A DNA stretch of 64,000 nucleotides, taken from assembly GCA_024407725.1 (NCBI GenBank), contig JAKSVZ010000002.1:7403-71402 (forward strand), given 5' to 3'. This DNA comes from Opitutales bacterium. Its GTDB lineage: Bacteria > Verrucomicrobiota > Verrucomicrobiia > Opitutales > UBA9783. The notes beneath the pieces are model-generated. The model made no database searches and had not been told where the DNA came from. It worked only from the letters and a program-made list of their open reading frames with translations. The number at the start of each line of letters is the position of its first letter. Position 1 is the stretch's first letter. Shown one piece after another: positions 1,963 through 26,159 of the stretch. A program made the position numbers and the translations under genes.

Positions 1963-4449
1963 ATGAAACAGCTGGTAATTGCTGAAAAACCAAGCGTTGC
2001 GAAAGATTTAGCGAAAGCGCTAGGGGGATTTAAGACTAATAAAGCCGGATATTTTGAGCGGGATGATATGATTTTATCTTCCGCCTTAGGACATTTGGTA
2101 GAGTTGTATTTACCCGGAGACATTGATAAAAAATATAAATTTTGGACACTCAAAAATTTGCCCATTTTACCGGAAAAATTTCAACTAAAGCCCATTGAAA
2201 AAAGCGCTGAGCGTTTCCATTTTTTAAAAAAGCTGATGGAGCGTTCGGATGTATCAGGGTTAATCAATGCCTGTGATGCCGGTCGCGAAGGGGAATTGAT
2301 TTTTGCGTATCTATGTGAATTGGCGAATTGTAAAAAACCCACGCAACGGTTATGGCTTTCATCCATGACGCCTGATGCCATCCGCGATGCCTTTGATCAT
2401 CTACGAAGCGCCGAAAGTATGCAGTCGTTAGAAGCTGCCGCCCGTTGCCGTTCTGAAGCGGATTGGTTGGTAGGAATCAATGGAACGCGTGCGGTTACCG
2501 GACGTATGATGGGGAATCGCTCAAAAGATGTTGCGAGCGTCGGTCGAGTGCAAACTCCTACCTTGGCACTGATTTGCGAACGCGAACAAGAAATTCGCGA
2601 CTTCAAACCCACTCCTTTTTGGACCCTAGAAGGAACGTTTAAGTTGCACTCAGGTACTTATACGGGTTGGCTTCAGCGCCCAAACTTTAAAAAGCAACAG
2701 GAAGCAGATCGCAGTGACCGTTTTTGGAAGGAATCGGAAACGCAAGCCTTAATAACCCAACTTAATAGCCTTAAGCCAACGGATTGGGTGGTTCAGGACA
2801 GCCAAAAACTATCCAAAACAGCTGCTCCGCGTTTGTTTGACTTAACCTCCTTGCAACGTACCTGCAACCAACGCTTTGGGTATTCGGCAAAATTTACGTT
2901 GGATATGGCGCAAAGTTTGTATGAAAAGCATAAAGCGCTCACATACCCCCGTACCGATTCGCGTGCCTTGCCTGAAGATTATGGACCAACCTGTATTAAC
3001 ATCCTTAAAAAATTAAGCGGGGCTTATGCACCTTTAGCAACTAAGGTGATTGAACATCATTGGGTCAATCCTCAGTCGAAAATCATTTTTAATAACAAAG
3101 CAATTTCAGACCACTTTGCTATTATTCCAACCGAAATTGCTCCCAAGGAGCTCAAGGAAAGCGAACGAAAGGTATACGATTGCGTTGTACGACGCTTTAT
3201 TGCTGCCTTTTTTCCACCTGCTGAATTTTCAACCACTACACGCTTAACCACTCAGGCTGAGTTAACCTTTAAAACAGAAGGGAAGATACTCGTTCAACCG
3301 GGGTGGTTAGAAGTAACCGGAAAGCCAGAATCAAAAGAAGAACTGCCTGCCTTAACCCCTGACGATCAGGAGCATGCAACCAGCGAGGCTTTTCAGGTTC
3401 AAGCAGACGAAACGCATCCACCCGCTCGCTTCACCGAAGCGACCTTGTTAACCAGCATGGAGCACGCAGGTCAACAAGTGGAAGATGCGGAATGGGCTGA
3501 AGCCATGAAAGAACGTGGATTAGGAACTCCTGCCACACGCGCTCAAATCATTGAGAATTTAATCGGAGTTCATTATCTCGAACGGGTTGAAAAGCATCTA
3601 TGTCCTACGCCTAAAGCTGAACAGCTATTAGCGTTTTTAAACCTAACGCAGGTGCAAGACTTAGCAAGTCCAACCCTTACGGGCGAATGGGAGTATCGGT
3701 TAAATCAGATCCAAGATGGATCTCTGAATCGTGAACAATTCATGGAAGATATAAAGACGATGACAAAGCAGCTCGTGGAAAAGATTACCACGTTCCAAGA
3801 CTATCAAAACACGCTAAAGGTGCTAGCTCCAACCGACGGGAAACCAATGATTGAAACCTTTCGGTCGTATCAATCCCAAGATGGCACCTTGGTGATTTAC
3901 AAAACCATCGGTAACCGCAAGTTATCGCTTGAAGAGCTCGGTACGCTGATCAACCAAAAGCGGATTGGACCCCTGACCGGCTTTACCTCTAAATTAGGCA
4001 AGCTTTATACGGCTTCGCTTGTTTTAGGCGATGATTATAAGGTGAAGTTTGAGTTTGAATCCAAAACCGAATCAGCTCCAATCGATTTAAGCCTATGCGA
4101 ATGGATCGGAACCTGCCCCCTCTGCGGAGCTAAGGTTTATGTGAATGACCAATCCTTGGTATGTGAACATTTTTTGGAAAAAACCTGCGGATTGCGCATC
4201 AAACGCACGATTTTGGACTATACCTTATCGAACGATCAGTTGGTATACTTGTTAAAAAATGGTAAAACAGAGCTGATTACTCGCTTTAAATCAAAACGAA
4301 CTGGAAAGTTTTTCTCAGCCTATTTGGTGCTCAACAAAAACGGTTCTCTCAGCTTTGAATTTGAGTCCAAAGCCACCAAGGCTACCGATGAAAAGCAGCC
4401 GAAAAAGGCGAAAAAAGCGAAAGCTAAAACAAAAACAAAATCAGCTTAA
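1963..4449 (+). CDS. topB: Type IA DNA topoisomerase, topoisomerase III-like, with C-terminal zinc-ribbon/repeat modules and a Lys-rich tail
   Basis: MKQLVIAEKPSVAKDLAKALGG is a Toprim N-terminus of the TopB type, so the start was moved to the ATG at 1963. A C-terminal module is duplicated (...YTASLVLGDDYKVKFEFES / ...FSAYLVLNKNGSLSFEFES). CPLCG / C..C cysteines are present. The tail reads KQPKKAKKAKAKTKTKSA. Confidence 0.85.
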   Translation: MKQLVIAEKPSVAKDLAKALGGFKTNKAGYFERDDMILSSALGHLVELYLPGDIDKKYKFWTLKNLPILPEKFQLKPIEKSAERFHFLKKLMERSDVSGLINACDAGREGELIFAYLCELANCKKPTQRLWLSSMTPDAIRDAFDHLRSAESMQSLEAAARCRSEADWLVGINGTRAVTGRMMGNRSKDVASVGRVQTPTLALICEREQEIRDFKPTPFWTLEGTFKLHSGTYTGWLQRPNFKKQQEADRSDRFWKESETQALITQLNSLKPTDWVVQDSQKLSKTAAPRLFDLTSLQRTCNQRFGYSAKFTLDMAQSLYEKHKALTYPRTDSRALPEDYGPTCINILKKLSGAYAPLATKVIEHHWVNPQSKIIFNNKAISDHFAIIPTEIAPKELKESERKVYDCVVRRFIAAFFPPAEFSTTTRLTTQAELTFKTEGKILVQPGWLEVTGKPESKEELPALTPDDQEHATSEAFQVQADETHPPARFTEATLLTSMEHAGQQVEDAEWAEAMKERGLGTPATRAQIIENLIGVHYLERVEKHLCPTPKAEQLLAFLNLTQVQDLASPTLTGEWEYRLNQIQDGSLNREQFMEDIKTMTKQLVEKITTFQDYQNTLKVLAPTDGKPMIETFRSYQSQDGTLVIYKTIGNRKLSLEELGTLINQKRIGPLTGFTSKLGKLYTASLVLGDDYKVKFEFESKTESAPIDLSLCEWIGTCPLCGAKVYVNDQSLVCEHFLEKTCGLRIKRTILDYTLSNDQLVYLLKNGKTELITRFKSKRTGKFFSAYLVLNKNGSLSFEFESKATKATDEKQPKKAKKAKAKTKTKSA

Positions 4450-5472
4450 CGCGGTTTTGATGATTTCCCAATAACGGCGCACTCTCCACGAATAATGGGG
4501 CTGGAAGAACGTACAATCTCCGCCTTCATAATTTACCAAACCGGTTGACATACAATCTTTGCAAAAATCAACCTTTTGATGCCATAATGGTAGATTTTCT
4601 TTCGTAACATCAAAAACGCTTCCAATGGGTTCTTGAATATTACAACAGGCTATAATTTCTCCCTTTGCGTTCATAGCCAATTGATGATCAAACCAATAAC
4701 AGGTTTTAGATGGTTTAAAGCATTTTGCATTTAATCCCATCAAAAGATCTTCAACGAGGCATTTTAAATATTCTTGTGGTAAAGTATTTTTAATATATTG
4801 CATCCAGATTTTAAAATCTAATGGAATTGCGTAATAAGGGATAAGCATAACGTTCAACGATTTTGCAAATTCGTAGGCCGCTGGAATTTCATGAATATTG
4901 AACTGATACACATGAAAACGAATCATAATTCGTCCGATACATCCTCGTTGTCTCAACGTGCGGACCAATGTACGAATATTGTTTTTGATGTGTTCGAAAT
5001 CAAAACGATGAATCCGATCGTAGGATGCCTGGCTAAAACCACACATGGAAATGAACATAGACATAATTGGGCTTGCATCAAAGGTGCTGGGCAACGATGG
5101 CAAAACATTCGCATTAGTGCTTAAATCCAACAAACATTGCTCTTCGTTTGCGATTTCAACAATTTTTGCAAACTCCGGGTGCAGTAGCGGTTCATACCAA
5201 ATATATAAAATTAATTCACTACCAACCGTTAAAAAACCTTTTGCCTTTAAATCCTTAATAATCCTTCGGAAAAGCTCTACATCCATGAATCGATTACCTT
5301 CGCAGACAACAGGCGCATGGTTACGGTTCGCCATTCCCGTTGGGCAAAAATAACATTGAGCGTTACATACCTGACTAATATCCATCAACACCTGATTCTT
5401 TGCTGAATCGGGTAGTTTGCGGTACGCATTAATGCGTTTAATCGTCGATAGGGTTTTTAGGATCTGGGGCAT
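4441..5472 (-). CDS. Radical SAM enzyme with a C-terminal Cys-rich (SPASM/twitch-like) domain, paralog A
   Basis: 343 aa with an ATG start. Has the CX3CX2C motif CNAQCYFC, then YEPLLHPEF. The C-terminal cysteines read ...GEIIACCNIQEPIG...FCKDCMSTG...C. Its 3' end overlaps the topB 3' end by 9 nt (convergent). Confidence 0.8.
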   Translation of the reverse strand: MPQILKTLSTIKRINAYRKLPDSAKNQVLMDISQVCNAQCYFCPTGMANRNHAPVVCEGNRFMDVELFRRIIKDLKAKGFLTVGSELILYIWYEPLLHPEFAKIVEIANEEQCLLDLSTNANVLPSLPSTFDASPIMSMFISMCGFSQASYDRIHRFDFEHIKNNIRTLVRTLRQRGCIGRIMIRFHVYQFNIHEIPAAYEFAKSLNVMLIPYYAIPLDFKIWMQYIKNTLPQEYLKCLVEDLLMGLNAKCFKPSKTCYWFDHQLAMNAKGEIIACCNIQEPIGSVFDVTKENLPLWHQKVDFCKDCMSTGLVNYEGGDCTFFQPHYSWRVRRYWEIIKTALS

Positions 5473-5512
5473 TTTTTAAAATGATATTAACATTATCGTT
5501 TGTATGTAAATT

Positions 5513-6571
5513 TTACAAAAAGTATGATAAAGATGGTAAATCGAATTCATCGTTGTCTTCACACTGTATACGCGGGACACCTGCTGCCTTGCAGGTTTTA
5601 CAGAATTCAGACGTAGCATAATATGCCTGCAAGCTTTCTGGGGTCATGTTAAATAAACTGCCTATAGGTTTTGGGAACATAACACAAACATTTAAATCCC
5701 CATCCGGATTAATACAGATGTCCGTAAAGGAACATGTATTTACCGGTCCTCTTGGATGGCTACCATGAAACAAATACTGAGACATTAGTGTTAGATAATC
5801 TACAGGTAACTCTCGATTGTGGTATTTTAAAGCTCGTTCTCCATCCACAAGAAAAGCCCATACGGGCCAAAATCCTATATGTAACGAGCGTGCAAATTCG
5901 GCTGCAGCTTTAATTTCATGTGTGTTAAATTGATAAACATGAAATATTAATGTAAAATATCCTATACAACCATGTGCACGAAATTCATGAACTACTGATG
6001 CAATATTTTTCTTACACTGTTCAAAATCACTCATAAAAATCTTATCGTAAGATTTTTGACTAAACCCACACATGCTCAGTCTAAAGAAGGAAACACAAGA
6101 TGCATCAAATTTATCAGAAAATTTAGGTAAGAAAATTCCATTAGTAGATAAAGAAATGTGACGTTTTTTACGAGTTATGTAATCCATAAACCGTTCGAAT
6201 TCCGGGTGCAGCATAGGTTCGCCCCAGTTATACAAAGCAACCATCTGGTTGTTGTTTGTATGCAAAAAATGCTGTTTTTCTAGGTAATCCAGGATTTTTT
6301 TAAAAAGTTCAAAATCCATAAAATGACCTTTTTCAGTCGGAGCACACCCGTTGCGATTTTTATTTCCGGTTGAACAAAATATACACTTAGAATTACATAC
6401 GTTGCCTATATCTATATAAAATCCTGTCTCTTTCAGGCATTGTCGATAAGACAAAACGCGTTTTAATGCTTCAAGTTTATTAGGGATAAACTTTGATGTG
6501 CTAATTGTTTTAAGAATCTCCCAGCGTTGAGCTAATTTCAAACATTGATCAATTCGAAATAACTTATTCAT
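5513..6571 (-). CDS. Radical SAM enzyme with a C-terminal Cys-rich (SPASM/twitch-like) domain, paralog B
   Basis: 352 aa. Has CNSKCIFC (CX3CX2C) and YNWGEPMLHPEF. CSFTDICINPDGDLNVC fits C-x10-G-x4-C and is followed by CKTC...C. Roughly 60% aa identity to paralog C by eye. Confidence 0.8.
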   Translation of the reverse strand: MNKLFRIDQCLKLAQRWEILKTISTSKFIPNKLEALKRVLSYRQCLKETGFYIDIGNVCNSKCIFCSTGNKNRNGCAPTEKGHFMDFELFKKILDYLEKQHFLHTNNNQMVALYNWGEPMLHPEFERFMDYITRKKRHISLSTNGIFLPKFSDKFDASCVSFFRLSMCGFSQKSYDKIFMSDFEQCKKNIASVVHEFRAHGCIGYFTLIFHVYQFNTHEIKAAAEFARSLHIGFWPVWAFLVDGERALKYHNRELPVDYLTLMSQYLFHGSHPRGPVNTCSFTDICINPDGDLNVCVMFPKPIGSLFNMTPESLQAYYATSEFCKTCKAAGVPRIQCEDNDEFDLPSLSYFL

Positions 6572-6769
6572 ATTATCCTAAACGTAACCTATTGTTTTTG
6601 TAAGTACAACTTATTTTATCAGCCATTGGTTTCTTAAAAAGAAAGATTCTGATATACTAAATTATAATTATAAATTTATGCTAGGTATTACCCAAACCCC
6701 GTTATTCAGCCTTTTAGGGCAAAAAATAGCGGAAGATCCGTTTCGGCTGATCAGTGCGGTTATTTTCTT
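6561..6769. repeat. Copy 1 of a 209-nt perfect direct repeat (partner at 7994-8202)
   Basis: Compared base by base: 6561-6769 is identical to 7994-8202 (offset 1433). It covers the first codons of the rSAM gene (minus strand), the whole divergent intergenic region and the first 30 codons plus 2 nt of the plus-strand membrane protein gene. Confidence 0.95.
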
Positions 6770-6812
6770 GTGTGCTATTTTACATATCTGTGCGACATTT
6801 ATCCGCACTTGA
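6678..6812 (+). pseudogene. Truncated 5' copy of the 8111-9463 membrane protein gene (44 codons plus stop)
   Basis: Reads MLGITQTPLFSLLGQKIAEDPFRLISAVIFLCAILH, identical to the first 36 aa of the 8111 ORF. It then diverges (ICATFIRT*) at the duplication junction. Too short for the ORF track. Confidence 0.8.
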
Positions 6813-6882
6813 TCATTTGCTGATTCGGGCAGTTTCCGATAAGCCTAGATGTGTTTAATAATTGATAAGATTTTTTAAGATC
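6793..6882 (-). pseudogene. Decayed 5' fragment of a radical-SAM gene related to paralog A
   Basis: 6808-6882 aligns by eye to 5391-5464, the codon ~4-27 region of paralog A, at about 75% nt identity. The start codon is lost (gatcttacttgt versus gatctggggcat) and the frame contains stops. Boundaries are approximate. Confidence 0.65.
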
Positions 6883-6942
6883 TTACTTGTGAGTAAATAA
6901 ATGAAATTGTTTTATGATCCACTTTATCTCAATTACAATCAT

Positions 6943-8004
6943 TTATAAATAATACTTCAAAGCACGTAAATCGAATTCGTCGTCATCTTCGCACAATAAA
7001 CGCGGAAACCCTGCAGCTTTGCATTCTGTGCAAAACGGATAAGAATCACACAACGCTTTCCAGGAATCAGGTGTCATATCAAAAATGCTACCCATAGACT
7101 CTCGAAACATACAACATCGATGTACTCCTCCTCGTGGATTAATACAGAGTTGTGCAAAATGACATGTGTTAACGGGACCACGTTTATGGCCTCCATAAAA
7201 CAAGTATTGAAACATTTTACTCAAATATTCTGTTGGTAATTCTCCTTTTAAAAACTGCATGCCTCGCTTTCCATCCACTTGATATGCCCAAACTGGCCAA
7301 AAATCTATATGTAGCGATCGTGCAAATTCAGCCGCTGCTTGAATTTCATGTGTATTAAATTGATAAACACAAAAAATCAAACCAAAACCCCCAATATATC
7401 CATGATGTGCACGAAGATTTTTAACAAGCGTTGCAATATTGCGTTTACATTGTTCAAAATCCGCCATGAAAATTTTATCGTATGAAGCCTGACTAAAGCC
7501 ACACATTGTGAATCTAATAAAACGAATAGAAGATGCATTAACATTTGCCGAAAATTTAGGAAGATAGATTCCATTGGTGGATAACACAATTTTTCGTTTC
7601 TCTTGCGTTAAATAATCAATAATACGCTCGAATTCCGGATGAAGTAAGGGTTCTCCCCAGTTATACAAAGAAATTCGTTGATCTTTTGGGGTATGTATAA
7701 AACCCACTTCTTTAAGATGAGTCCAAACCTGTTTAAAAAATTCAAAGTTCATAAAGCTGCCTCTTTCTTCAGAGGAGCATCCGTTGCGATTTTTAATGCC
7801 GGTCGAACAAAATAAACATTTCGAATTACACACGTCTCCGATATCAAGGAATATATTATCTACATCCATCTCATGCCGATAACATACTAACTGCTTGATA
7901 GCCTTTAGTTTATTTGGCACAAATTTTGAAGTACTGATCGTTTTTAAAATTTCTAAAGCTTGATATAGTTTTAGGTGCCTACGCAACCGAAACAACTTAT
8001 TCAT
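6943..8004 (-). CDS. Radical SAM enzyme with a C-terminal Cys-rich (SPASM/twitch-like) domain, paralog C
   Basis: 353 aa. Has CNSKCLFC and YNWGEPLLHPEF. C-terminal cysteines read CHFAQLCINPRGGVHRCC...CTECKAAG...C. Shares the acidic tail CEDDDEFDL with paralog B. Confidence 0.8.
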   Translation of the reverse strand: MNKLFRLRRHLKLYQALEILKTISTSKFVPNKLKAIKQLVCYRHEMDVDNIFLDIGDVCNSKCLFCSTGIKNRNGCSSEERGSFMNFEFFKQVWTHLKEVGFIHTPKDQRISLYNWGEPLLHPEFERIIDYLTQEKRKIVLSTNGIYLPKFSANVNASSIRFIRFTMCGFSQASYDKIFMADFEQCKRNIATLVKNLRAHHGYIGGFGLIFCVYQFNTHEIQAAAEFARSLHIDFWPVWAYQVDGKRGMQFLKGELPTEYLSKMFQYLFYGGHKRGPVNTCHFAQLCINPRGGVHRCCMFRESMGSIFDMTPDSWKALCDSYPFCTECKAAGFPRLLCEDDDEFDLRALKYYL

Positions 8005-8202
8005 ATTATCCTAAACGTAACCTATTGTTTTTGTAAGTACAACTTATTTTATCAGCCATTGGTTTCTTAAAAAGAAAGATTCTGATATACTAAATTATAA
8101 TTATAAATTTATGCTAGGTATTACCCAAACCCCGTTATTCAGCCTTTTAGGGCAAAAAATAGCGGAAGATCCGTTTCGGCTGATCAGTGCGGTTATTTTC
8201 TT
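7994..8202. repeat. Copy 2 of the 209-nt perfect direct repeat (partner at 6561-6769)
   Basis: Identical to 6561-6769. Here it sits at the intact rSAM-C / membrane-gene divergent junction. Confidence 0.95.
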
Positions 8203-9463
8203 ATGCGCCATCCTGCATACCTTTTTCTGCAGTAAATTCAGCACAAAAGCGCGGCAATTGGAGCAGGCGAACTGTGATAGCTACAAAGTATCCATTTTCC
8301 ATTGGCTTGGAGAAGTAGAGGTAATTTTTGGATTATGGCTCATTCCGCTTTTATTGAGCTTCATTTGCTTCAAAGGCTGGAATGCCAGTGTTCAGTATTT
8401 TTCCACGCGGCATTATACCGAACCCATCTTTGTGTGCATCATCATGATGATAGCAGCTACACGTCCTATTTTATACGTAGCAGAACGTTTTATCAATTTA
8501 GCGGTTAACACCCTAGGGGGAGAACGTCCATCCACTTGGTGGTTTTGCATTCTAACCATTGCCCCTTTGTTTGGCTCTCTGATTACCGAACCCGCTGCGA
8601 TGACGATTGCTGCCCTGCTCTTGTCGCATAAGGTTTTTGTTTACAAACCGAACGCTTGGTTTTCGTACGCGACCCTAGGCTTGCTGTTCGTTAATGTATC
8701 CATTGGGGGAACTCTAACCCACTTTGCCGCCCCTCCCATCCTGATGGTAGCCAACACGTGGCATTGGACCACCGCTTATGTATTCTCGCATTTTGGGATT
8801 AAAACAATCATGAGCGTTATCATCTCAAGCGTACTGTACTTTTTACTCTTTGCCCCTCACTTGCATACGCTCAATAAGCGCGCAAAAATGGAAACGCTAT
8901 CCTCCCAGAATGAACAAAGACTACCGCTGGGAATTATTCTAACCCATGTCGGCTTTTTAACCTGGACGGTGCTCAATGCACACCATACGGCTTTGGTTGT
9001 ATTCGGAGGATTGCTATTTTTGATGGTAGCTCAAATCTTTAAAAAGTATCAATCCCCCATGGCGCTCAAAGAATCTCTGTTGGTGGGATGTTTCTTGGCA
9101 GGGCTTGTAACACACGGCGGACTGCAAGAATGGTGGATCGAGGCTGTTTTATCACGGCTCAATGATGCCTGTTTGTTCTACGGATCGGTTATTTTAACCT
9201 CTTTTAATGATAATGCATCGTTAACCTATCTAGCATCCTTGGTTCCAGCGTTTGCCGATCATTTTCAATTGCAATCAGCGGTGGTTAGCGGCGCAGTGAT
9301 TGGTGGGGGATTAACGGTTATTGCCAATGCACCTAATCCAGCTGGACAATCCATCTTATCCAAGTTTTTTGCCCATAACATCGTAAAGCCCCTACCTTTG
9401 TGCTTAGGTGCTTTATTGCCCACCTGCGTCACGATTTATATCTTCCGCTATTTAATGGGATAG
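8111..9463 (+). CDS. Polytopic inner-membrane protein, probable ion/solute transporter (family not identified with confidence)
   Basis: 450-aa ORF with an ATG start. About 11-12 hydrophobic segments are visible in the translation. It resembles uncharacterised putative cation antiporter-like proteins, but I cannot verify the family. Confidence 0.75.
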   Translation: MLGITQTPLFSLLGQKIAEDPFRLISAVIFLCAILHTFFCSKFSTKARQLEQANCDSYKVSIFHWLGEVEVIFGLWLIPLLLSFICFKGWNASVQYFSTRHYTEPIFVCIIMMIAATRPILYVAERFINLAVNTLGGERPSTWWFCILTIAPLFGSLITEPAAMTIAALLLSHKVFVYKPNAWFSYATLGLLFVNVSIGGTLTHFAAPPILMVANTWHWTTAYVFSHFGIKTIMSVIISSVLYFLLFAPHLHTLNKRAKMETLSSQNEQRLPLGIILTHVGFLTWTVLNAHHTALVVFGGLLFLMVAQIFKKYQSPMALKESLLVGCFLAGLVTHGGLQEWWIEAVLSRLNDACLFYGSVILTSFNDNASLTYLASLVPAFADHFQLQSAVVSGAVIGGGLTVIANAPNPAGQSILSKFFAHNIVKPLPLCLGALLPTCVTIYIFRYLMG

Positions 9464-9567
9464 GCTTCTAAAAAAGCAAAACACAAAAAAATTTCGCTTT
9501 TTTAGCGACAGTAAGCCTAAGGGTTATATACTGTTTTTGTCCTTCTAATTTAGCATGAAATGAATTT

Positions 9568-9599
9568 AAAAGTAAGGATGCTTGGGATCCTTTACTTTT
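9568..9599. terminator. Candidate bidirectional intrinsic terminator downstream of the membrane protein gene
   Basis: aaaagtaaggat / gcttggg / atcctttactttt forms a 12-bp stem with one bulged T and a 7-nt loop. A-run and T-run arms flank it. It lies about 100 nt after the stop at 9463. Confidence 0.45.
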
Positions 9600-9602
9600 G
9601 AG

Positions 9603-9631
9603 TTGACATTAAGATGAAAAACAGATTAAAT
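9603..9631 (+). promoter_or_regulatory. Sigma70-like promoter with no ORF downstream
   Basis: TTGACA (9603-9608), an exact 17-nt spacer, then TTAAAT (9626-9631). Confidence 0.4.
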
Positions 9632-10143
9632 TTATCTTAATTTGTATACCATATGCAGTGGACAAAATTATTTTATCCCAACAAGATTTTTTGTCAAGCT
9701 CTTTATAAGAGGGGGATGCTTTGGGGGGACTTTCCCTATTTGTTTTTTATCTGCTAAACGGATCCATTGTACATCACCGAGAAAACACTGATGAAATACT
9801 CTTTGTGCCTCTGTTTTTTATCGACATGGATTAACAATTACCGTATGATACGGTATTGCCTTTTCTGATTCTGCTTTTCCAAGAAAAAGTTTATTTCAAA
9901 AAAACCATCCTGTCGAGCCTTTTTAAGATAAATCCTAAAAGGATCCTATGGGTTGATTGGGATTTTCCGTCTTTATAAATGAAGGTTAAAACAAGCAAAC
10001 TTACTGTTTTCGCTTGATAGCCCTGTAAAAAAGCAACCGCTCCCAAAGAGGGCATGGGGCATTATAGGTTTATCGTTTAAAAAACCAATTTTTTTAGAAA
10101 AGGCTCATAGTAAAAAGAGAACCTATGAACTTTCGCTTTTTTA

Positions 10144-10172
10144 TTGACATAGGCACATAGGTTGAATAAAAT
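10144..10172 (+). promoter_or_regulatory. Sigma70-like promoter with no ORF downstream
   Basis: TTGACA (10144-10149), an exact 17-nt spacer, then TAAAAT (10167-10172). Confidence 0.5.
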
Positions 10173-10228
10173 TACCTATGTAAGGAAGCAATCCTCCAAT
10201 TAATGGAATTTTTGTCCCTCAAGCATTC

Positions 10229-10270
10229 ATAGGCTTACAGCAGGTGATAATTGGTAAATTTATCATGTTC
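10229..10270 (+). repeat. Non-coding element related to the 21868-21948 and 22251-22332 elements (copy U3)
   Basis: ataggcttac (10229-10238) and gtgataat (10244-10251) are exact matches to 22287-22296 and 22297-22304. A related atcatgttc / atcatctcc tail follows. Confidence 0.45.
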
Positions 10271-10363
10271 TTCTTGGTCTTTTTTAGGAGATTCTCATAA
10301 AGATTTTAACCAATCCTTATCGAACAGTCAAGGACAAAAGCGGAGCAAGAACCCTAACGAACA

Positions 10364-10402
10364 TTAAAAAATATCGCCTAGAGGGAAACCTTTAGGCGAT
10401 AT
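10364..10402 (-). terminator. Rho-independent terminator of ald (possibly bidirectional)
   Basis: atatcgcctagagg-GAAA-cctttaggcgatat forms a 14-bp stem (one G-U pair) with a GAAA tetraloop. On the minus strand it is followed by TTTTTT. It lies 24 nt downstream of the ald stop at 10426. Confidence 0.7.
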
Positions 10403-10425
10403 TCATAGGTTTTAATAGCTTATGC

Positions 10426-11565
10426 TTATTTCTTAGAACAAGTGCAATGGCCACCGAACAAGGTTTCGGGGCAAACGAACTTCATCTTTAAGGAATCAGC
10501 AACTGCTTTATGGGTAATAGAACCCTTATAAACGTTCAAGCCGTTCAGCAAGTGCTTGTCTTCCTTAAGGGCGCGTTCGTAACCCAAGTTCGCCAATTTT
10601 TCAACGAATGGGAACGTTGCGTTGTTCAAGGAGATGGTAGAAGTACGAGCAAAAGCTCCAGGCATATTGGCTACGCAATAGTGGACAATACCGTTTACTT
10701 CAAACACGGGATGATCGTGTGTTGTTGCATGGCTGGTTTCGCAGCATCCACCTTGGTCAATAGCGACATCAACAATGACGCTACCCGGTTTCATGGTCTT
10801 CAGCATGCTCTTCATAATCAAGCGTGGAGTCGATAATCCAGGGATTAAAGCCGCACCAATAACGATATCAGTTGAAGGAAGGAGCGCTTTAATGTTTTCA
10901 GATGACGAATAAACGGTTTTTACGCGGCTTTTAAATACATTGGCAATGTGTTCCAACGTTGGTTGATAGGAATCAACAATCGTTACATCGGCACCCATTC
11001 CGCTTGCGATTAACGCTGCATTTTGTCCGACGCAACCACCACCTAAGATAAGAACTTTGGCGGGTAATACACCGGGAACGCCGCAAGGTAATAAGCCACT
11101 ACCACCGAATTGTTTTTGTAAGAAATAGCTTCCCATGAGGGCTGACATGCGTCCTGCAATGGTACTCATAGGCATCAACAACGGTAATTTTCCGCGTGCA
11201 TCGGTAACGGTTTCGTAAGCGATACAAACAGCTTTGGATTTAACCAACGCATCGGTTAATGGACGATCGGCCGCCAAGTGTAGGTACGTAAAGACAATCT
11301 GATCTTTGCGAATTTTGGAGTATTCTGCTTTTAACGGCTCTTTGACCTTAACGATCATATCGGCCTGCTTCCAAATCTCATCTGCAGTTTTGCAAATTTT
11401 AGCTCCAGCTTTCTTGTAATCTTGATCTGAGAAGCCAGCGCCAACTCCTGCTGAGGCTTCAACCAAAACAGTATGTTTTTGATGGGTTAAACTGGCTACA
11501 AACGCCGGTATTAACCCAACCCGATTTTCTCTTTCTTTAATTTCTTTTACGATACCTATTTTCAT
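10426..11565 (-). CDS. ald: Alanine dehydrogenase
   Basis: 379 aa. MKIGIVKEIKERENRVGLIP is an Ald-type N-terminus. Has a GGGCVG NAD-binding loop and Ald-like similarity along its length by eye. Confidence 0.9.
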   Translation of the reverse strand: MKIGIVKEIKERENRVGLIPAFVASLTHQKHTVLVEASAGVGAGFSDQDYKKAGAKICKTADEIWKQADMIVKVKEPLKAEYSKIRKDQIVFTYLHLAADRPLTDALVKSKAVCIAYETVTDARGKLPLLMPMSTIAGRMSALMGSYFLQKQFGGSGLLPCGVPGVLPAKVLILGGGCVGQNAALIASGMGADVTIVDSYQPTLEHIANVFKSRVKTVYSSSENIKALLPSTDIVIGAALIPGLSTPRLIMKSMLKTMKPGSVIVDVAIDQGGCCETSHATTHDHPVFEVNGIVHYCVANMPGAFARTSTISLNNATFPFVEKLANLGYERALKEDKHLLNGLNVYKGSITHKAVADSLKMKFVCPETLFGGHCTCSKK

Positions 11566-21763: not shown

Positions 21764-21768
21764 AAGCC

Positions 21769-21797
21769 TTGACACTCTAACCGTTTAGAGTTACCAT
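21769..21797 (+). promoter_or_regulatory. Sigma70-like promoter with no ORF downstream (overlaps a weak hairpin that could instead terminate the acetyltransferase gene)
   Basis: TTGACA (21769-21774), a 17-nt spacer, then TACCAT (21792-21797). The spacer contains ctctaa-ccgt-ttagag. Confidence 0.35.
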
Positions 21798-21867
21798 TAT
21801 TTTTGATGGGTGAAACTGGTTGCGGGAAGACATTTTTGATCGGCCATATGGCTGTCCTTCAAGAAAC

Positions 21868-21948
21868 TCGGCTGTTTTTTAGGAACCAGATGGCGTCACT
21901 TGATAGCTTCACGTAATAATAGACTATCAACACTTACGATCATCTCGT
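21868..21948 (+). repeat. Non-coding element, copy U1 (paralog of 22251-22332)
   Basis: Hand alignment shows tcggctgtt identical in both copies. The core ggcgtcacttgatagcttcacgtaataatagactatcaacacttacgatcatctc matches U2 at about 43 of 58 positions. Stops occur in all frames. Confidence 0.55.
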
Positions 21949-22186
21949 GCACCCAAATAGTAAATGAAGGACGTTAAATAAAATATAGTTCCATCATTCA
22001 TAGGTTGGCATGTTCTTTCAAGAAATATTGTACAACCTATCCCCTCCTAGAGTCAAGCCAAAAGCCAAAACTATATAATTTAAATACTAAACACTGCTTG
22101 TTAAAATGTCTTTAAAGAAATGAAAAAAGCAGCAATAAACAGCACAAAATTCCCCGAATCTGTACTGCTTTGATTCGATAAAAATC

Positions 22187-22215
22187 TTGACACAACAAAA
22201 CTTTATTCCTATGAT
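22187..22215 (+). promoter_or_regulatory. Sigma70-like promoter with no ORF downstream
   Basis: TTGACA (22187-22192), an exact 17-nt spacer, then TATGAT (22210-22215). Confidence 0.5.
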
Positions 22216-22250
22216 TTAAGTAGGATGTAGTAAAAGTTTTTTATTACTCA

Positions 22251-22332
22251 TCGGCTGTTCTTCAATAGACTAGAGGGCGTTACCTGATAGGCTTACGTGA
22301 TAATAAGCTGCTAACACTCACAATCATCTCCT
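22251..22332 (+). repeat. Non-coding element, copy U2 (paralog of 21868-21948; shares a core with 10229-10270)
   Basis: See U1. It lies about 35 nt downstream of the predicted TSS of the 22187 promoter. Confidence 0.55.
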
Positions 22333-22497
22333 CTGGCGCTCTGCAACTAAAAGCAGGATCACTAGAAGCAAGAAACGTTAGTGTTGATTCATCCATTTCG
22401 CTTCTACCAAACAGAATTTAACTCATTATTGCCTGAGCGTCAATAAAAAAGATAAGGATGTTCCTTTCCTTTTTTATCTCTTAAAATGCTTTTATCC

Positions 22498-22526
22498 TTG
22501 ACCCTTGGCCAAATAAAGAATATAAT
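22498..22526 (+). promoter_or_regulatory. Sigma70-like promoter pointing at the 3' end of pnp (convergent)
   Basis: TTGACC (22498-22503), an exact 17-nt spacer, then TATAAT (22521-22526). No ORF follows. Confidence 0.5.
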
Positions 22527-22758
22527 TGTTCTTAAGCGAACAAATGGCTCCAATATTCAAAATCTTTTGCACGCAAACCAAATTTTTTGATTTATCGCAT
22601 CTGCCAGCTACCATAGCAAAACATTAAAATACACGCTACAACTTAACGTTTTGACGTTAACTTTAACTTGAGCATTTTCTGGCGAAGCATGCTTGCTTAT
22701 TTTAAGCGCTTTCGCCATCGAATGTCAATTACAACGTAAAGGCTTTTGCCAATCCTTA

Positions 22759-25292: not shown

Positions 25293-25304
25293 GGGGGGGG
25301 GGGG
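25293..25304 (+). repeat. Homopolymeric G12 tract directly abutting the start codon of an OMP gene
   Basis: Counted directly: atg-gggggggggggg... There are 12 consecutive G at 25293-25304 and the OMP ATG is at 25305. An out-of-frame ATG sits at 25291. Confidence 0.95.
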
Positions 25305-26159
25305 ATGATAAAACGAACTACTCTATTATTAAGTATCTGTATTGCTTTAGGAATACATACCCCCTGTTATGGTCTATACGTCATGGTACGTTCGGGATTT
25401 GGAACCCTAAAGGGAGATCCTATCTCGTTTGAGTATGAGGATCCAGATTTTCCTGACCCAGGAGTTATACAGTATAACTTGTATGATTACACAGATAACG
25501 CTTTCATTTACAAAGATCACAAAAACTTATCGGTGGCTTTAGGCGGACGCTTAGATGTGTTTGATATCGGCGCTTTAGGGCTGGAAGTTGAAATCCTAGG
25601 TGCTTATGCCAATTTAGATGCAAACAGGGGAAAGAGTGATTGGGGAGGAGATGATAGAAATGCAATATGGCAAAACATACCCGATCCTGATTTTTTTGTG
25701 GAAATCTATCGGAAGGTTCTTCCCTATAATCACAATCATTACTATGTATCCATGCGATTGCTCTACCTAAAAAATCAACGCATTGCTGGAACACAAGTAA
25801 ACGTCTATTGGGAACAGTATCTATTGGATTGGTTATCCGCTGGTATCGGTTGCGGGCTTGGCGGCGCTTATGTTTGCACCAAATTTACGACGTTGGAATG
25901 GGGTGAAATCGTAAATGATCGCGATGACTGGCAGGGTAATACGGAACTAAGCAGCCGCCGTAAGTACGTCCATTCCGGATCATTGCTGTACAACTTTAGC
26001 CTCTTTGTACGCGCAGAGAAATTTGAAACCTTATTCGAAGTCGGTTACCGCCATATCGGTTTACATCAGATGTGGAATAAATGCTATGGATATACAATCC
26101 CGAAGTTGGCTAACATGCATTCCGACCAAGTATACATTGGCGTAGGACGGACGTTCTAA
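25305..26159 (+). CDS. Outer-membrane beta-barrel protein, family 1 paralog 1
   Basis: 284 aa. Signal peptide MIKRTTLLLSICIALGIHTPCYG. Has alternating beta-strand-like segments and a C-terminal ...VYIGVGRTF. Paralog of 29428-30288. Confidence 0.75.
   Translation: MIKRTTLLLSICIALGIHTPCYGLYVMVRSGFGTLKGDPISFEYEDPDFPDPGVIQYNLYDYTDNAFIYKDHKNLSVALGGRLDVFDIGALGLEVEILGAYANLDANRGKSDWGGDDRNAIWQNIPDPDFFVEIYRKVLPYNHNHYYVSMRLLYLKNQRIAGTQVNVYWEQYLLDWLSAGIGCGLGGAYVCTKFTTLEWGEIVNDRDDWQGNTELSSRRKYVHSGSLLYNFSLFVRAEKFETLFEVGYRHIGLHQMWNKCYGYTIPKLANMHSDQVYIGVGRTF

Follow-up and report, generated by a model that had tools for sequence, protein, structure and literature searches.

The 64,000-nucleotide stretch analysed here (the window; contig JAKSVZ010000002.1, positions 7,403 to 71,402, of an Opitutales bacterium) contains a region, at positions 9464-10425, in which no long open reading frame (ORF) is found. 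The region lies between the genes encoding a 450-residue putative Na+/H+ antiporter of the PF07399 family (8111-9463, plus strand) and alanine dehydrogenase (ald; 10426-11565, minus strand). The stop codons of both genes border the region, and their 3' ends converge. The flanking proteins correspond to MCQ2955678.1 and MCQ2955679.1 of the Opitutales bacterium metagenome-assembled genome GCA_024500545.1, and the consecutive numbering of these accessions suggests that no GenBank protein is annotated between the two. A gap of about 1 kb is anomalous, as the first-pass annotation had pointed out, since the window features just two gaps near this size, 9464-10425 and 21764-22758. Comparison with relatives gave the most informative new result: the region harbours an ~840-bp segment replacing a gene that is present in all four related lineages. 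The features of the region are listed in Table 1.

The absence of any ORF of 60 residues or more, reported in the first-pass annotation, was verified; the longest ORF encodes 54 residues on the minus strand. Six-frame translations of the region matched no Pfam family and none of 5.8 billion proteins, in either case at E <= 10. Seven candidate ORFs, including the 54-residue one, were looked up among 15 billion called proteins, and none is present as an exact copy. A HMMER search of the 54-residue ORF against 1.84 billion representatives returned one weak match (E 1e-4) that came without a matched stretch and is meaningless. The short ORFs do lack Shine-Dalgarno (SD) sequences, as had been noticed. 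Their absence is little informative: SD-like motifs precede only 12 of the 51 long ORFs of the window, and a missing SD therefore does not count against an ORF. An alternative genetic code was also considered and discarded, as reading each stop codon as sense yielded no long ORF beyond what AT-richness leads one to expect. The region is genuine non-coding DNA.

Known RNA families are likewise not represented. At the gathering threshold, a scan of the whole window with Rfam models detected two tRNAs only, both outside the region, and the loci of the relatives yielded tRNAs only. In E-value mode, the best hit within 9300-10600 had an E of 3.1, far below gathering. The search for a known non-coding RNA (ncRNA) family that had been proposed for this region thus gave a negative answer, even at E <= 10. 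A chromosomal replication origin was rejected as well: the region contains no cluster of DnaA boxes and a single box with one mismatch, and the relatives hold a gene at the same slot. An independent Logan contig (SRR17543914) is an exact copy of 10112-10425. This contig ends at 10112, exactly where the A/T hairpin located upstream of the promoter at 10144 begins; the break may stem from low coverage or from differences between strains on the left side of this position.

Relatives were fetched via the flanking proteins and belong to four lineages (L082, L083/L084, L086-L089 and L090-L094); the relatives obtained in a contig scan with ald were at most 58% identical. Antiporter and ald proteins of the four lineages are 84-89% and 91-94% identical to those of the window, respectively. 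In all four lineages, the slot is occupied by a plus-strand gene, convergent with ald, that encodes a 272-residue short-chain dehydrogenase/reductase (SDR; adh_short). DNA homology between the window and the relatives, as detected by blastn, extends through the antiporter gene to 9450 and is found again from 10367. The interval 10290-10369 aligns with the 75 nt preceding the L082 hairpin in a global, position-restricted comparison (z 4.1, p ~0.0005). Segment 9451-10289 is unrelated DNA, which stands in place of the SDR gene, the SDR terminator and part of the spacer. Conservation of the region among relatives, which had been suggested as a check, fails strongly: the relatives lack the segment altogether and carry the SDR gene instead. 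As for the polarity of the event (loss in the window or gain elsewhere), trees of ald and of a M16 peptidase conflict in branching order. In more distant relatives, synteny is lost.

The slot, and a length of ~0.9 kb that matches the SDR gene of the relatives, would suit a decayed pseudogene of this or of another gene. At four-fold degenerate sites of ald, however, the window differs from its closest relatives by 0.28 (~0.35 after Jukes-Cantor correction), and decay in place should consequently have left ~70% identity or more. With three SDR orthologs as queries, no tblastn match in the region was better than E 3.7, and the rest of the window gave none. Scores of local (Smith-Waterman) and global DNA alignments equal those of shuffled sequences, blastn was negative, and no frame matches a Pfam family or a protein. 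The SDR gene was replaced rather than decayed, because no trace of it is left in the window although neutral sites differ by 28% only. A degraded protein gene, the finding that would have overturned the non-coding interpretation offered at first, was not found in 9464-10425, and we regard decay as extremely improbable.

The replacing segment could not be traced to a source. Searches by blastn of 72,556 plasmid and 50,697 phage records gave chance-level matches only, and two exact-pattern scans (20-27-mers) of JGI metagenomes gave no match. Pattern scans of IMG/VR revealed nothing informative, the number of matches being about equal to a rough, uncalculated chance estimate. Neither the window nor 1.19 Mb of relatives' and other fetched loci contains a second copy of the segment. 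The GC content of the segment is 34%, against 44% window-wide. Since the other larger intergenic gaps of the genome range from ~22 to 45%, composition is no argument for a foreign origin. Two further origins were discarded. A large internal tandem duplication is not supported, as significant repetition is limited to a 50-nt module and Tandem Repeats Finder found nothing. A miniature inverted-repeat transposable element or an insertion sequence remnant would feature traits that were not found: inspection revealed no convincing terminal inverted repeats, there is no target-site duplication, and multiple copies are missing from the window and from the 1.19 Mb of loci.

Promoter-like sequences were sought as sigma70-like -35/-10 pairs, and those agreeing with the consensus at 10 or more of 12 positions were termed strong; positions denote consensus matches, not mapped starts. 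The region contains five strong sites against 0.48 expected, a number reached by none of 1000 dinucleotide shuffles. Nearly half of the strong sites of the window (10/21) fall within the two 1-kb ORF-free regions; among the other intergenic gaps, strong sites are found only at 5510 and 18421, both on the minus strand. As a sequence signal, the orphan promoters are real and not random. Two of them, TTGACA-17-TTAAAT at 9603 (-35 at 9603-9608) and TTGACA-17-TAAAAT at 10144 (-35 at 10144-10149, -10 at 10167-10172), had been annotated and are present as described. It had also been recognised that these plus-strand promoters have no gene to drive, because the 3' ends of both flanking genes face the region. 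The early count of two was, in contrast, too low, as it missed three further strong sites (-9697, +9821 and -10331, denoted by strand and position). The predicted promoters +10144 and -9697 both lack a downstream protein gene. The sites form two facing pairs, +9603/-9697 and +10144/-10331, and transcripts starting at the predicted positions would overlap at their 5' ends by ~22 nt and ~115 nt, respectively.

Hairpins are also in excess. Eight local hairpins of -10 kcal/mol or lower were counted, against 3.1 +/- 1.2 by chance. Folding of the whole region gave z-scores of -6.5 (plus strand) and -5.1 (minus strand); z was -4.7 when the terminal hairpin was left out, and five coding controls ranged from -1.9 to +1.1. 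Since z is still ~-3.8 under shuffles preserving 5-lets, the signal is not merely due to A-runs pairing with T-runs.

The hairpin with a GAAA loop, initially placed at 10371-10402, is present as 10370-10403; one of its 15 pairs is a G-U, and A6 lies to its left. Of the two-way termination attributed to it, the plus-strand part is probably the weaker one in the window. It is conserved in L082, L083, L086 and L090, with a compensatory exchange in the outer stem (T-A in the window, G-C in the relatives). It folds with -19.5 kcal/mol as minus-strand RNA and with -23.9 kcal/mol as plus-strand RNA. The plus-strand tail that follows it is TTTTGTTT in the relatives and TTCATAGGTTTT in the window. Like bidirectional terminators located between convergent genes, the hairpin has an A-tract at one side and a T-rich sequence at the other and serves both ald and the plus-strand transcript of the relatives, where it is predicted to end convergent transcription as well. 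In the window, a CATAGG sequence interrupts this T-tract on the plus strand, and the hairpin should thus function mainly as the ald terminator.

At the opposite border, the 9468-9505 hairpin is more stable as minus-strand RNA (-17.3 kcal/mol, z -4.5) than as plus-strand RNA (-8.3 kcal/mol); the U-run of the minus strand lies within the stem. The next hairpin, at 9563-9604, is likely the true end of the antiporter mRNA. The 9722-9750 element may mark the end of a ~110-nt transcript directed by the 9603 promoter. A terminator for this promoter had originally been sought in the hairpin at 9839-9855 (taccgta-tga-tacggta). This hairpin does exist, but the terminator-like T-run at 9722-9750 is nearer to the promoter.

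The sequence CATAGG, or its complement CCTATG, occurs seven times in the region against 0.37 expected, and six of these occurrences are found within 10122-10409. The cluster is unique within the window and the ten relatives' loci. Two arms of an operator-like palindrome flank the -10 of the 10144 promoter and cover its predicted start, and another CATAGG overlaps the -35. To judge from the sequence, this placement has the geometry of a repressor operator. The palindrome had escaped notice in the first-pass annotation. The region also carries two copies of a 50-nt module combining an A/T hairpin and a -35 box, whereas the two halves of the region outside this module show no significant likeness. 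With five strong sites, an excess of hairpins, the duplicated module and the CATAGG cluster, the region is organised rather than random.

Table 1 Features of the 9464-10425 region and its borders. Positions refer to the window; starts are predicted from the promoter scan.
Feature	Position	Strand	Basis or remarks
Lineage-specific non-coding segment, 34% GC (~840 bp)	9451-10289		Slot of the relatives' SDR gene and SDR terminator
Orthologous spacer downstream of ald, common to relatives (~135 bp)	10290-10425		blastn and alignment
A/T-tract hairpin directly past the antiporter stop codon	9468-9505		Inverted repeat I9; folding
Hairpin followed by TTTTGAGTT, -35 box at 9603 directly after	9563-9604	+	-16.3 kcal/mol, z -4.6
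Promoter-like TTGACA-17-TTAAAT (scan: 18-nt spacer, TAAATT, 10/12), start ~9640	9603-9632	+	Scan
Near-consensus orphan promoter TTGACA-16-TAAAAT, 11/12, start ~9662	9670-9697	-	Scan
Weak G-rich hairpin and long T-run TTTGTTTTTTAT	9722-9750	+	Stem -6.3 kcal/mol
Promoter-like TCGACA-17-TATGAT, 10/12, overlapping the 9839-9855 hairpin	9821-9855	+	Scan
Longest ORF, 54 residues	9894-10055	-	Gene status unsupported
Copy of the 9462-9510 module, AGGCT..AAAAAG..TTTCGCTTTTTTA and (T/G)(T/C)GACA	10101-10149	+	Local alignment, p ~0.005
Cluster of six (T)TCATAGG(Y)T: 10122(-), 10148, 10156, 10175(-), 10228, 10404; seventh at 9945(-)	10120-10411		Count
Near-consensus orphan promoter TTGACA-17-TAAAAT, 11/12, start ~10180	10144-10172	+	Scan
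Operator-like palindrome ACATAGGT-N11-ACCTATGT	10155-10181		Read from the sequence
Promoter-like TTGACT-17-TAAAAT, 10/12, facing the 10144 promoter	10303-10331	-	Scan
Intrinsic terminator hairpin of ald, followed by T6 on the minus strand; hairpin also on the plus strand	10370-10403	-	Conservation, folding

Such an arrangement might denote the remnant control region of a mobile element (a phage, a plasmid or an integrative element) whose genes have been deleted. The two face-to-face promoter pairs, the operator-like palindrome, the iteron-like repetition of CATAGG in direct and inverted orientation, the AT-rich inverted repeats, the strong self-complementarity of both strands and the replacement of a resident gene would all be accounted for. 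However, neither the six-frame Pfam analysis nor the protein searches detected a coding remnant of any kind, the phage and plasmid records hold nothing similar, and IMG/VR no meaningful match. Terminal inverted repeats, a target duplication and a neighbouring tRNA or integrase gene are all missing, and the segment is single copy in the window. We consider this origin distinctly unlikely.

We favour, tentatively and with a probability of about 0.4, a reading in which short orphan non-coding transcription units, perhaps arranged as cis-antisense pairs, form a cluster specific to this lineage; one of the units would be under the control of a CATAGG-binding repressor. The two near-consensus promoters would fire outward, and transcription would end at the border hairpins. 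The minus-strand unit would run from ~9662 to ~9466 (roughly 195 nt) and end at the 9505-9468 hairpin, and the plus-strand unit would run from ~10180 to ~10410 (roughly 230 nt). Each outward promoter would be opposed by a weaker inward promoter (10/12), with 5' overlap between the two transcripts of a pair. The units may be independent, acting either as orphan small RNAs (sRNAs) or as cis-antisense pairs. The 10144 promoter would probably be repressed by some factor that binds the CATAGG palindrome around its -10.

Two plus-strand transcripts, ~9638-9870 and ~10179-10410, had been proposed in the first-pass annotation. The former is weakly founded: it rests on the weaker promoter and does not fold better than expected. 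The latter, reaching from the 10144 promoter to the 10370-10403 hairpin, is a plausible unit with an analogue in the relatives, although the strong hairpin at its end is the terminator of ald. The minus-strand unit had not been described; its sequence (9460-9662) folds with a z of -3.0.

The analogue is found in the 300-bp spacers between the SDR gene and ald of L082, L086 and L090. Past the SDR terminator, these spacers contain an orphan TTGACC-16-TA(C/T)AAT with an upstream TG (extended -10), which points into the shared ald terminator (L082, 8347-8515; L086, 5299-5326, minus strand there). L083 does not have it. The promoter would give rise to a candidate sRNA of ~135 nt. An orphan promoter downstream of pnp, kept in three lineages (see below), is a second precedent. 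Orphan promoter-terminator units thus recur between convergent genes of the group, which raises the prior that the units of the window are real.

Several observations weigh against the proposed transcription units. Segment 9451-10289 was found in no other searched genome or metagenome, and neither conservation nor covariation can hence be invoked; no Rfam family matches the region. AT-rich DNA is known to yield promoter-like sequences. Neither plus-strand transcript folds better than shuffles: z is -0.28 for the first (9640-9870) and +0.11 for the body of the second without its hairpin (10180-10366). The stem at 9722-9738 is weak. Of the two strong hairpins predicted to form the 3' ends of the outward units, the one at 9505-9468 has its U-run within the stem, and the one at 10370-10403, the ald terminator, has an interrupted plus-strand U-tail (TTCATAGGTTTT), so that termination on this strand is probably weaker. 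The 80 nt shared with the relatives before the terminator are ~60% identical by eye, against a neutral expectation of ~72%; being no better conserved than neutral sites, they add no evidence of selection.

The second ORF-free region, 21764-22758, provides a term of comparison. It is located downstream of pnp and measures 995 bp, against 274 bp in L095 (5637-5910) and 274-411 bp in the relatives (411 bp in L097, 5634-6044). Judging from gap lengths and homology blocks, it has gained some 700 bp of lineage-specific DNA. It contains five strong promoter-like sites against 0.44 expected, and CCTATG overlaps the -10 of an 11/12 promoter at 22187. The sharing of a motif, ATAGGCTTAC...GTGATAAT, between 10229-10251 and 22287-22304, spotted at the first reading of the sequence, was verified. 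In addition, the 10-mer TTCATAGGTT of the CATAGG cluster is found again at 21997-22006, and related sites occur at 22206-22215 and 22287-22304. Homology between the two ORF-free regions was rejected, as local alignment scores are not above those of shuffles; 8-9-mers common to both are modestly enriched (95 vs 63 +/- 10). Both islands lie at convergent gene junctions and share TTCATAGGYT. Conceivably, they form a newly born ncRNA/antisense regulon governed by one CATAGG-binding repressor, one island having arisen through the replacement of an enzyme gene. We deem this wider scheme a long shot; if true, regulated ncRNA loci would have been caught at birth. In the second region, a hairpin/terminator past pnp, followed by TTGAC(A/G)-17-TAnAnT in the orientation of pnp (22415-22473 in the window, minus strand), is kept in three lineages while the flanks have diverged, and is a candidate for a conserved ncRNA.

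The same data may be viewed differently. The segment may be inert filler, i.e., the scar of a gene replacement or deletion with imported or scrambled AT-rich DNA tolerated at a harmless convergent junction, where promoter-like sites, A/T-tract hairpins and short repeats would be by-products. In line with this view, the segment is confined to one lineage, none of the four related ones having it, it is AT-rich (34% vs 44% GC), its transcript bodies have no structure beyond the hairpins, the second ORF-free region likewise gained lineage-specific, promoter-dense DNA, and the neighbourhood is a rearrangement hot spot. Promoter islands, which are defined by an extreme density of start points over 300 bp or more, set a precedent. 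According to the report on Escherichia coli (Panyukov and Ozoline 2013, PMC3661553), these islands bind RNA polymerase and yield almost no full-length RNA. They resemble the region in being AT-rich over several hundred bp, in having many sites on both strands, in consisting of lineage-specific (probably acquired) DNA and in lacking a gene to drive. In contrast to the region, islands were identified by another predictor, have a far higher density of sites and are associated with binding of H-NS and with abortive transcription. The density of strong sites in the region is tenfold above expectation, as measured by a simpler scanner that differs from the one used to define islands. H-NS-type silencing is not established for Verrucomicrobiota. 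Inert DNA does not readily explain why the excess of strong sites, hairpins and CATAGG holds against composition-preserving shuffles (for folding, up to 5-lets), why the palindrome encloses the -10 of the best promoter so precisely, and why promoters and terminators are paired in an orderly way at both borders. This explanation is the main competitor of the favoured reading; we hold it to be rather unlikely, though by no means negligible.

A further option is that the region encodes a small protein, or a locus similar to type I toxin-antitoxin systems, in which a minus-strand ORF of 34 residues (9653) or 54 residues (10055-9894) would be controlled by antisense RNA. Minus-strand RNA starting at ~9662 would include the ATG at 9653, and a minus-strand transcript bearing the 54-residue ORF would have a 5' leader to which plus-strand RNA starting at 10180 is antisense. 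Overlapping antisense and mRNA promoters, which toxin-antitoxin loci would require, are predicted at +9603/-9697 and +10144/-10331, and the lack of SD sequences is no counter-argument in a genome that rarely uses them. Yet neither peptide has, by eye, a membrane-spanning hydrophobic stretch, and the ORFs are not called anywhere, have no homologs and have no paralogs in the window. We regard this option as very improbable. The two convergent promoter pairs and the predicted 5' overlaps are also reminiscent of face-to-face promoter switches and antisense control as in IS10 pIN/pOUT, hok/sok and symE/symR, but no transposase, credible toxin ORF or repeated copies are found in the region.

Compared with known systems, the proposed orphan units come closest to intergenic bacterial sRNA genes that have a sigma70 promoter and a Rho-independent terminator of their own, cis-antisense pairs included, with which they share near-consensus orphan promoters, hairpins 195-230 nt downstream, lack of coding capacity and location at a convergent junction. 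Transcript bodies that are largely unstructured are common to many base-pairing sRNAs. Unlike typical sRNA genes, the region has no homolog in relatives and no Rfam family, and the right unit would end at the terminator of ald, whose U-tail is poor in the plus-strand direction. On sequence grounds, the region is best filed as a new, unverified example of orphan intergenic sRNA-type units. Hardly any study on the sRNA biology of the phylum, Verrucomicrobiota, is known, and a literature search for it returned nothing relevant.

If the region is transcribed, it would represent a dated gene-to-ncRNA turnover, in which regulated non-coding transcription units took the place of an enzyme gene between lineages ~0.35 substitutions per neutral site apart, and would provide the first clue to sRNA promoters and to an operator motif of Opitutales. 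If it is not, it would provide a natural example of how near-consensus promoters and terminator-like hairpins accumulate in dispensable DNA at convergent junctions, and would call for caution in predicting sRNAs from sequence alone. The practical value is modest either way, as a single genome is concerned and the segment is not conserved.

Additional peculiarities were observed in the window. Upstream of the region, the interval 5363-8222 contains a tandem duplication (5363-6789 vs 6780-8222) with 72% identity over 1.45 kb. As a result, the window has two additional radical-SAM genes (5513-6571 and 6943-8004), which are absent from the relatives, and retains a truncated 5' end of the antiporter gene, together with its upstream 20 nt, at ~6660-6789. 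The radical-SAM gene common to the relatives (4441-5472) shows 78% amino-acid identity and a four-fold site difference of 0.52, against 0.20-0.33 for its neighbours; the relatives differ among themselves by 0.24 at these sites. This divergence suggests a hypervariable or recombined segment. Finally, a run of 12 G residues (25293-25304) immediately precedes the ATG at 25305 and could be either a slippage-prone tract or an assembly artefact.

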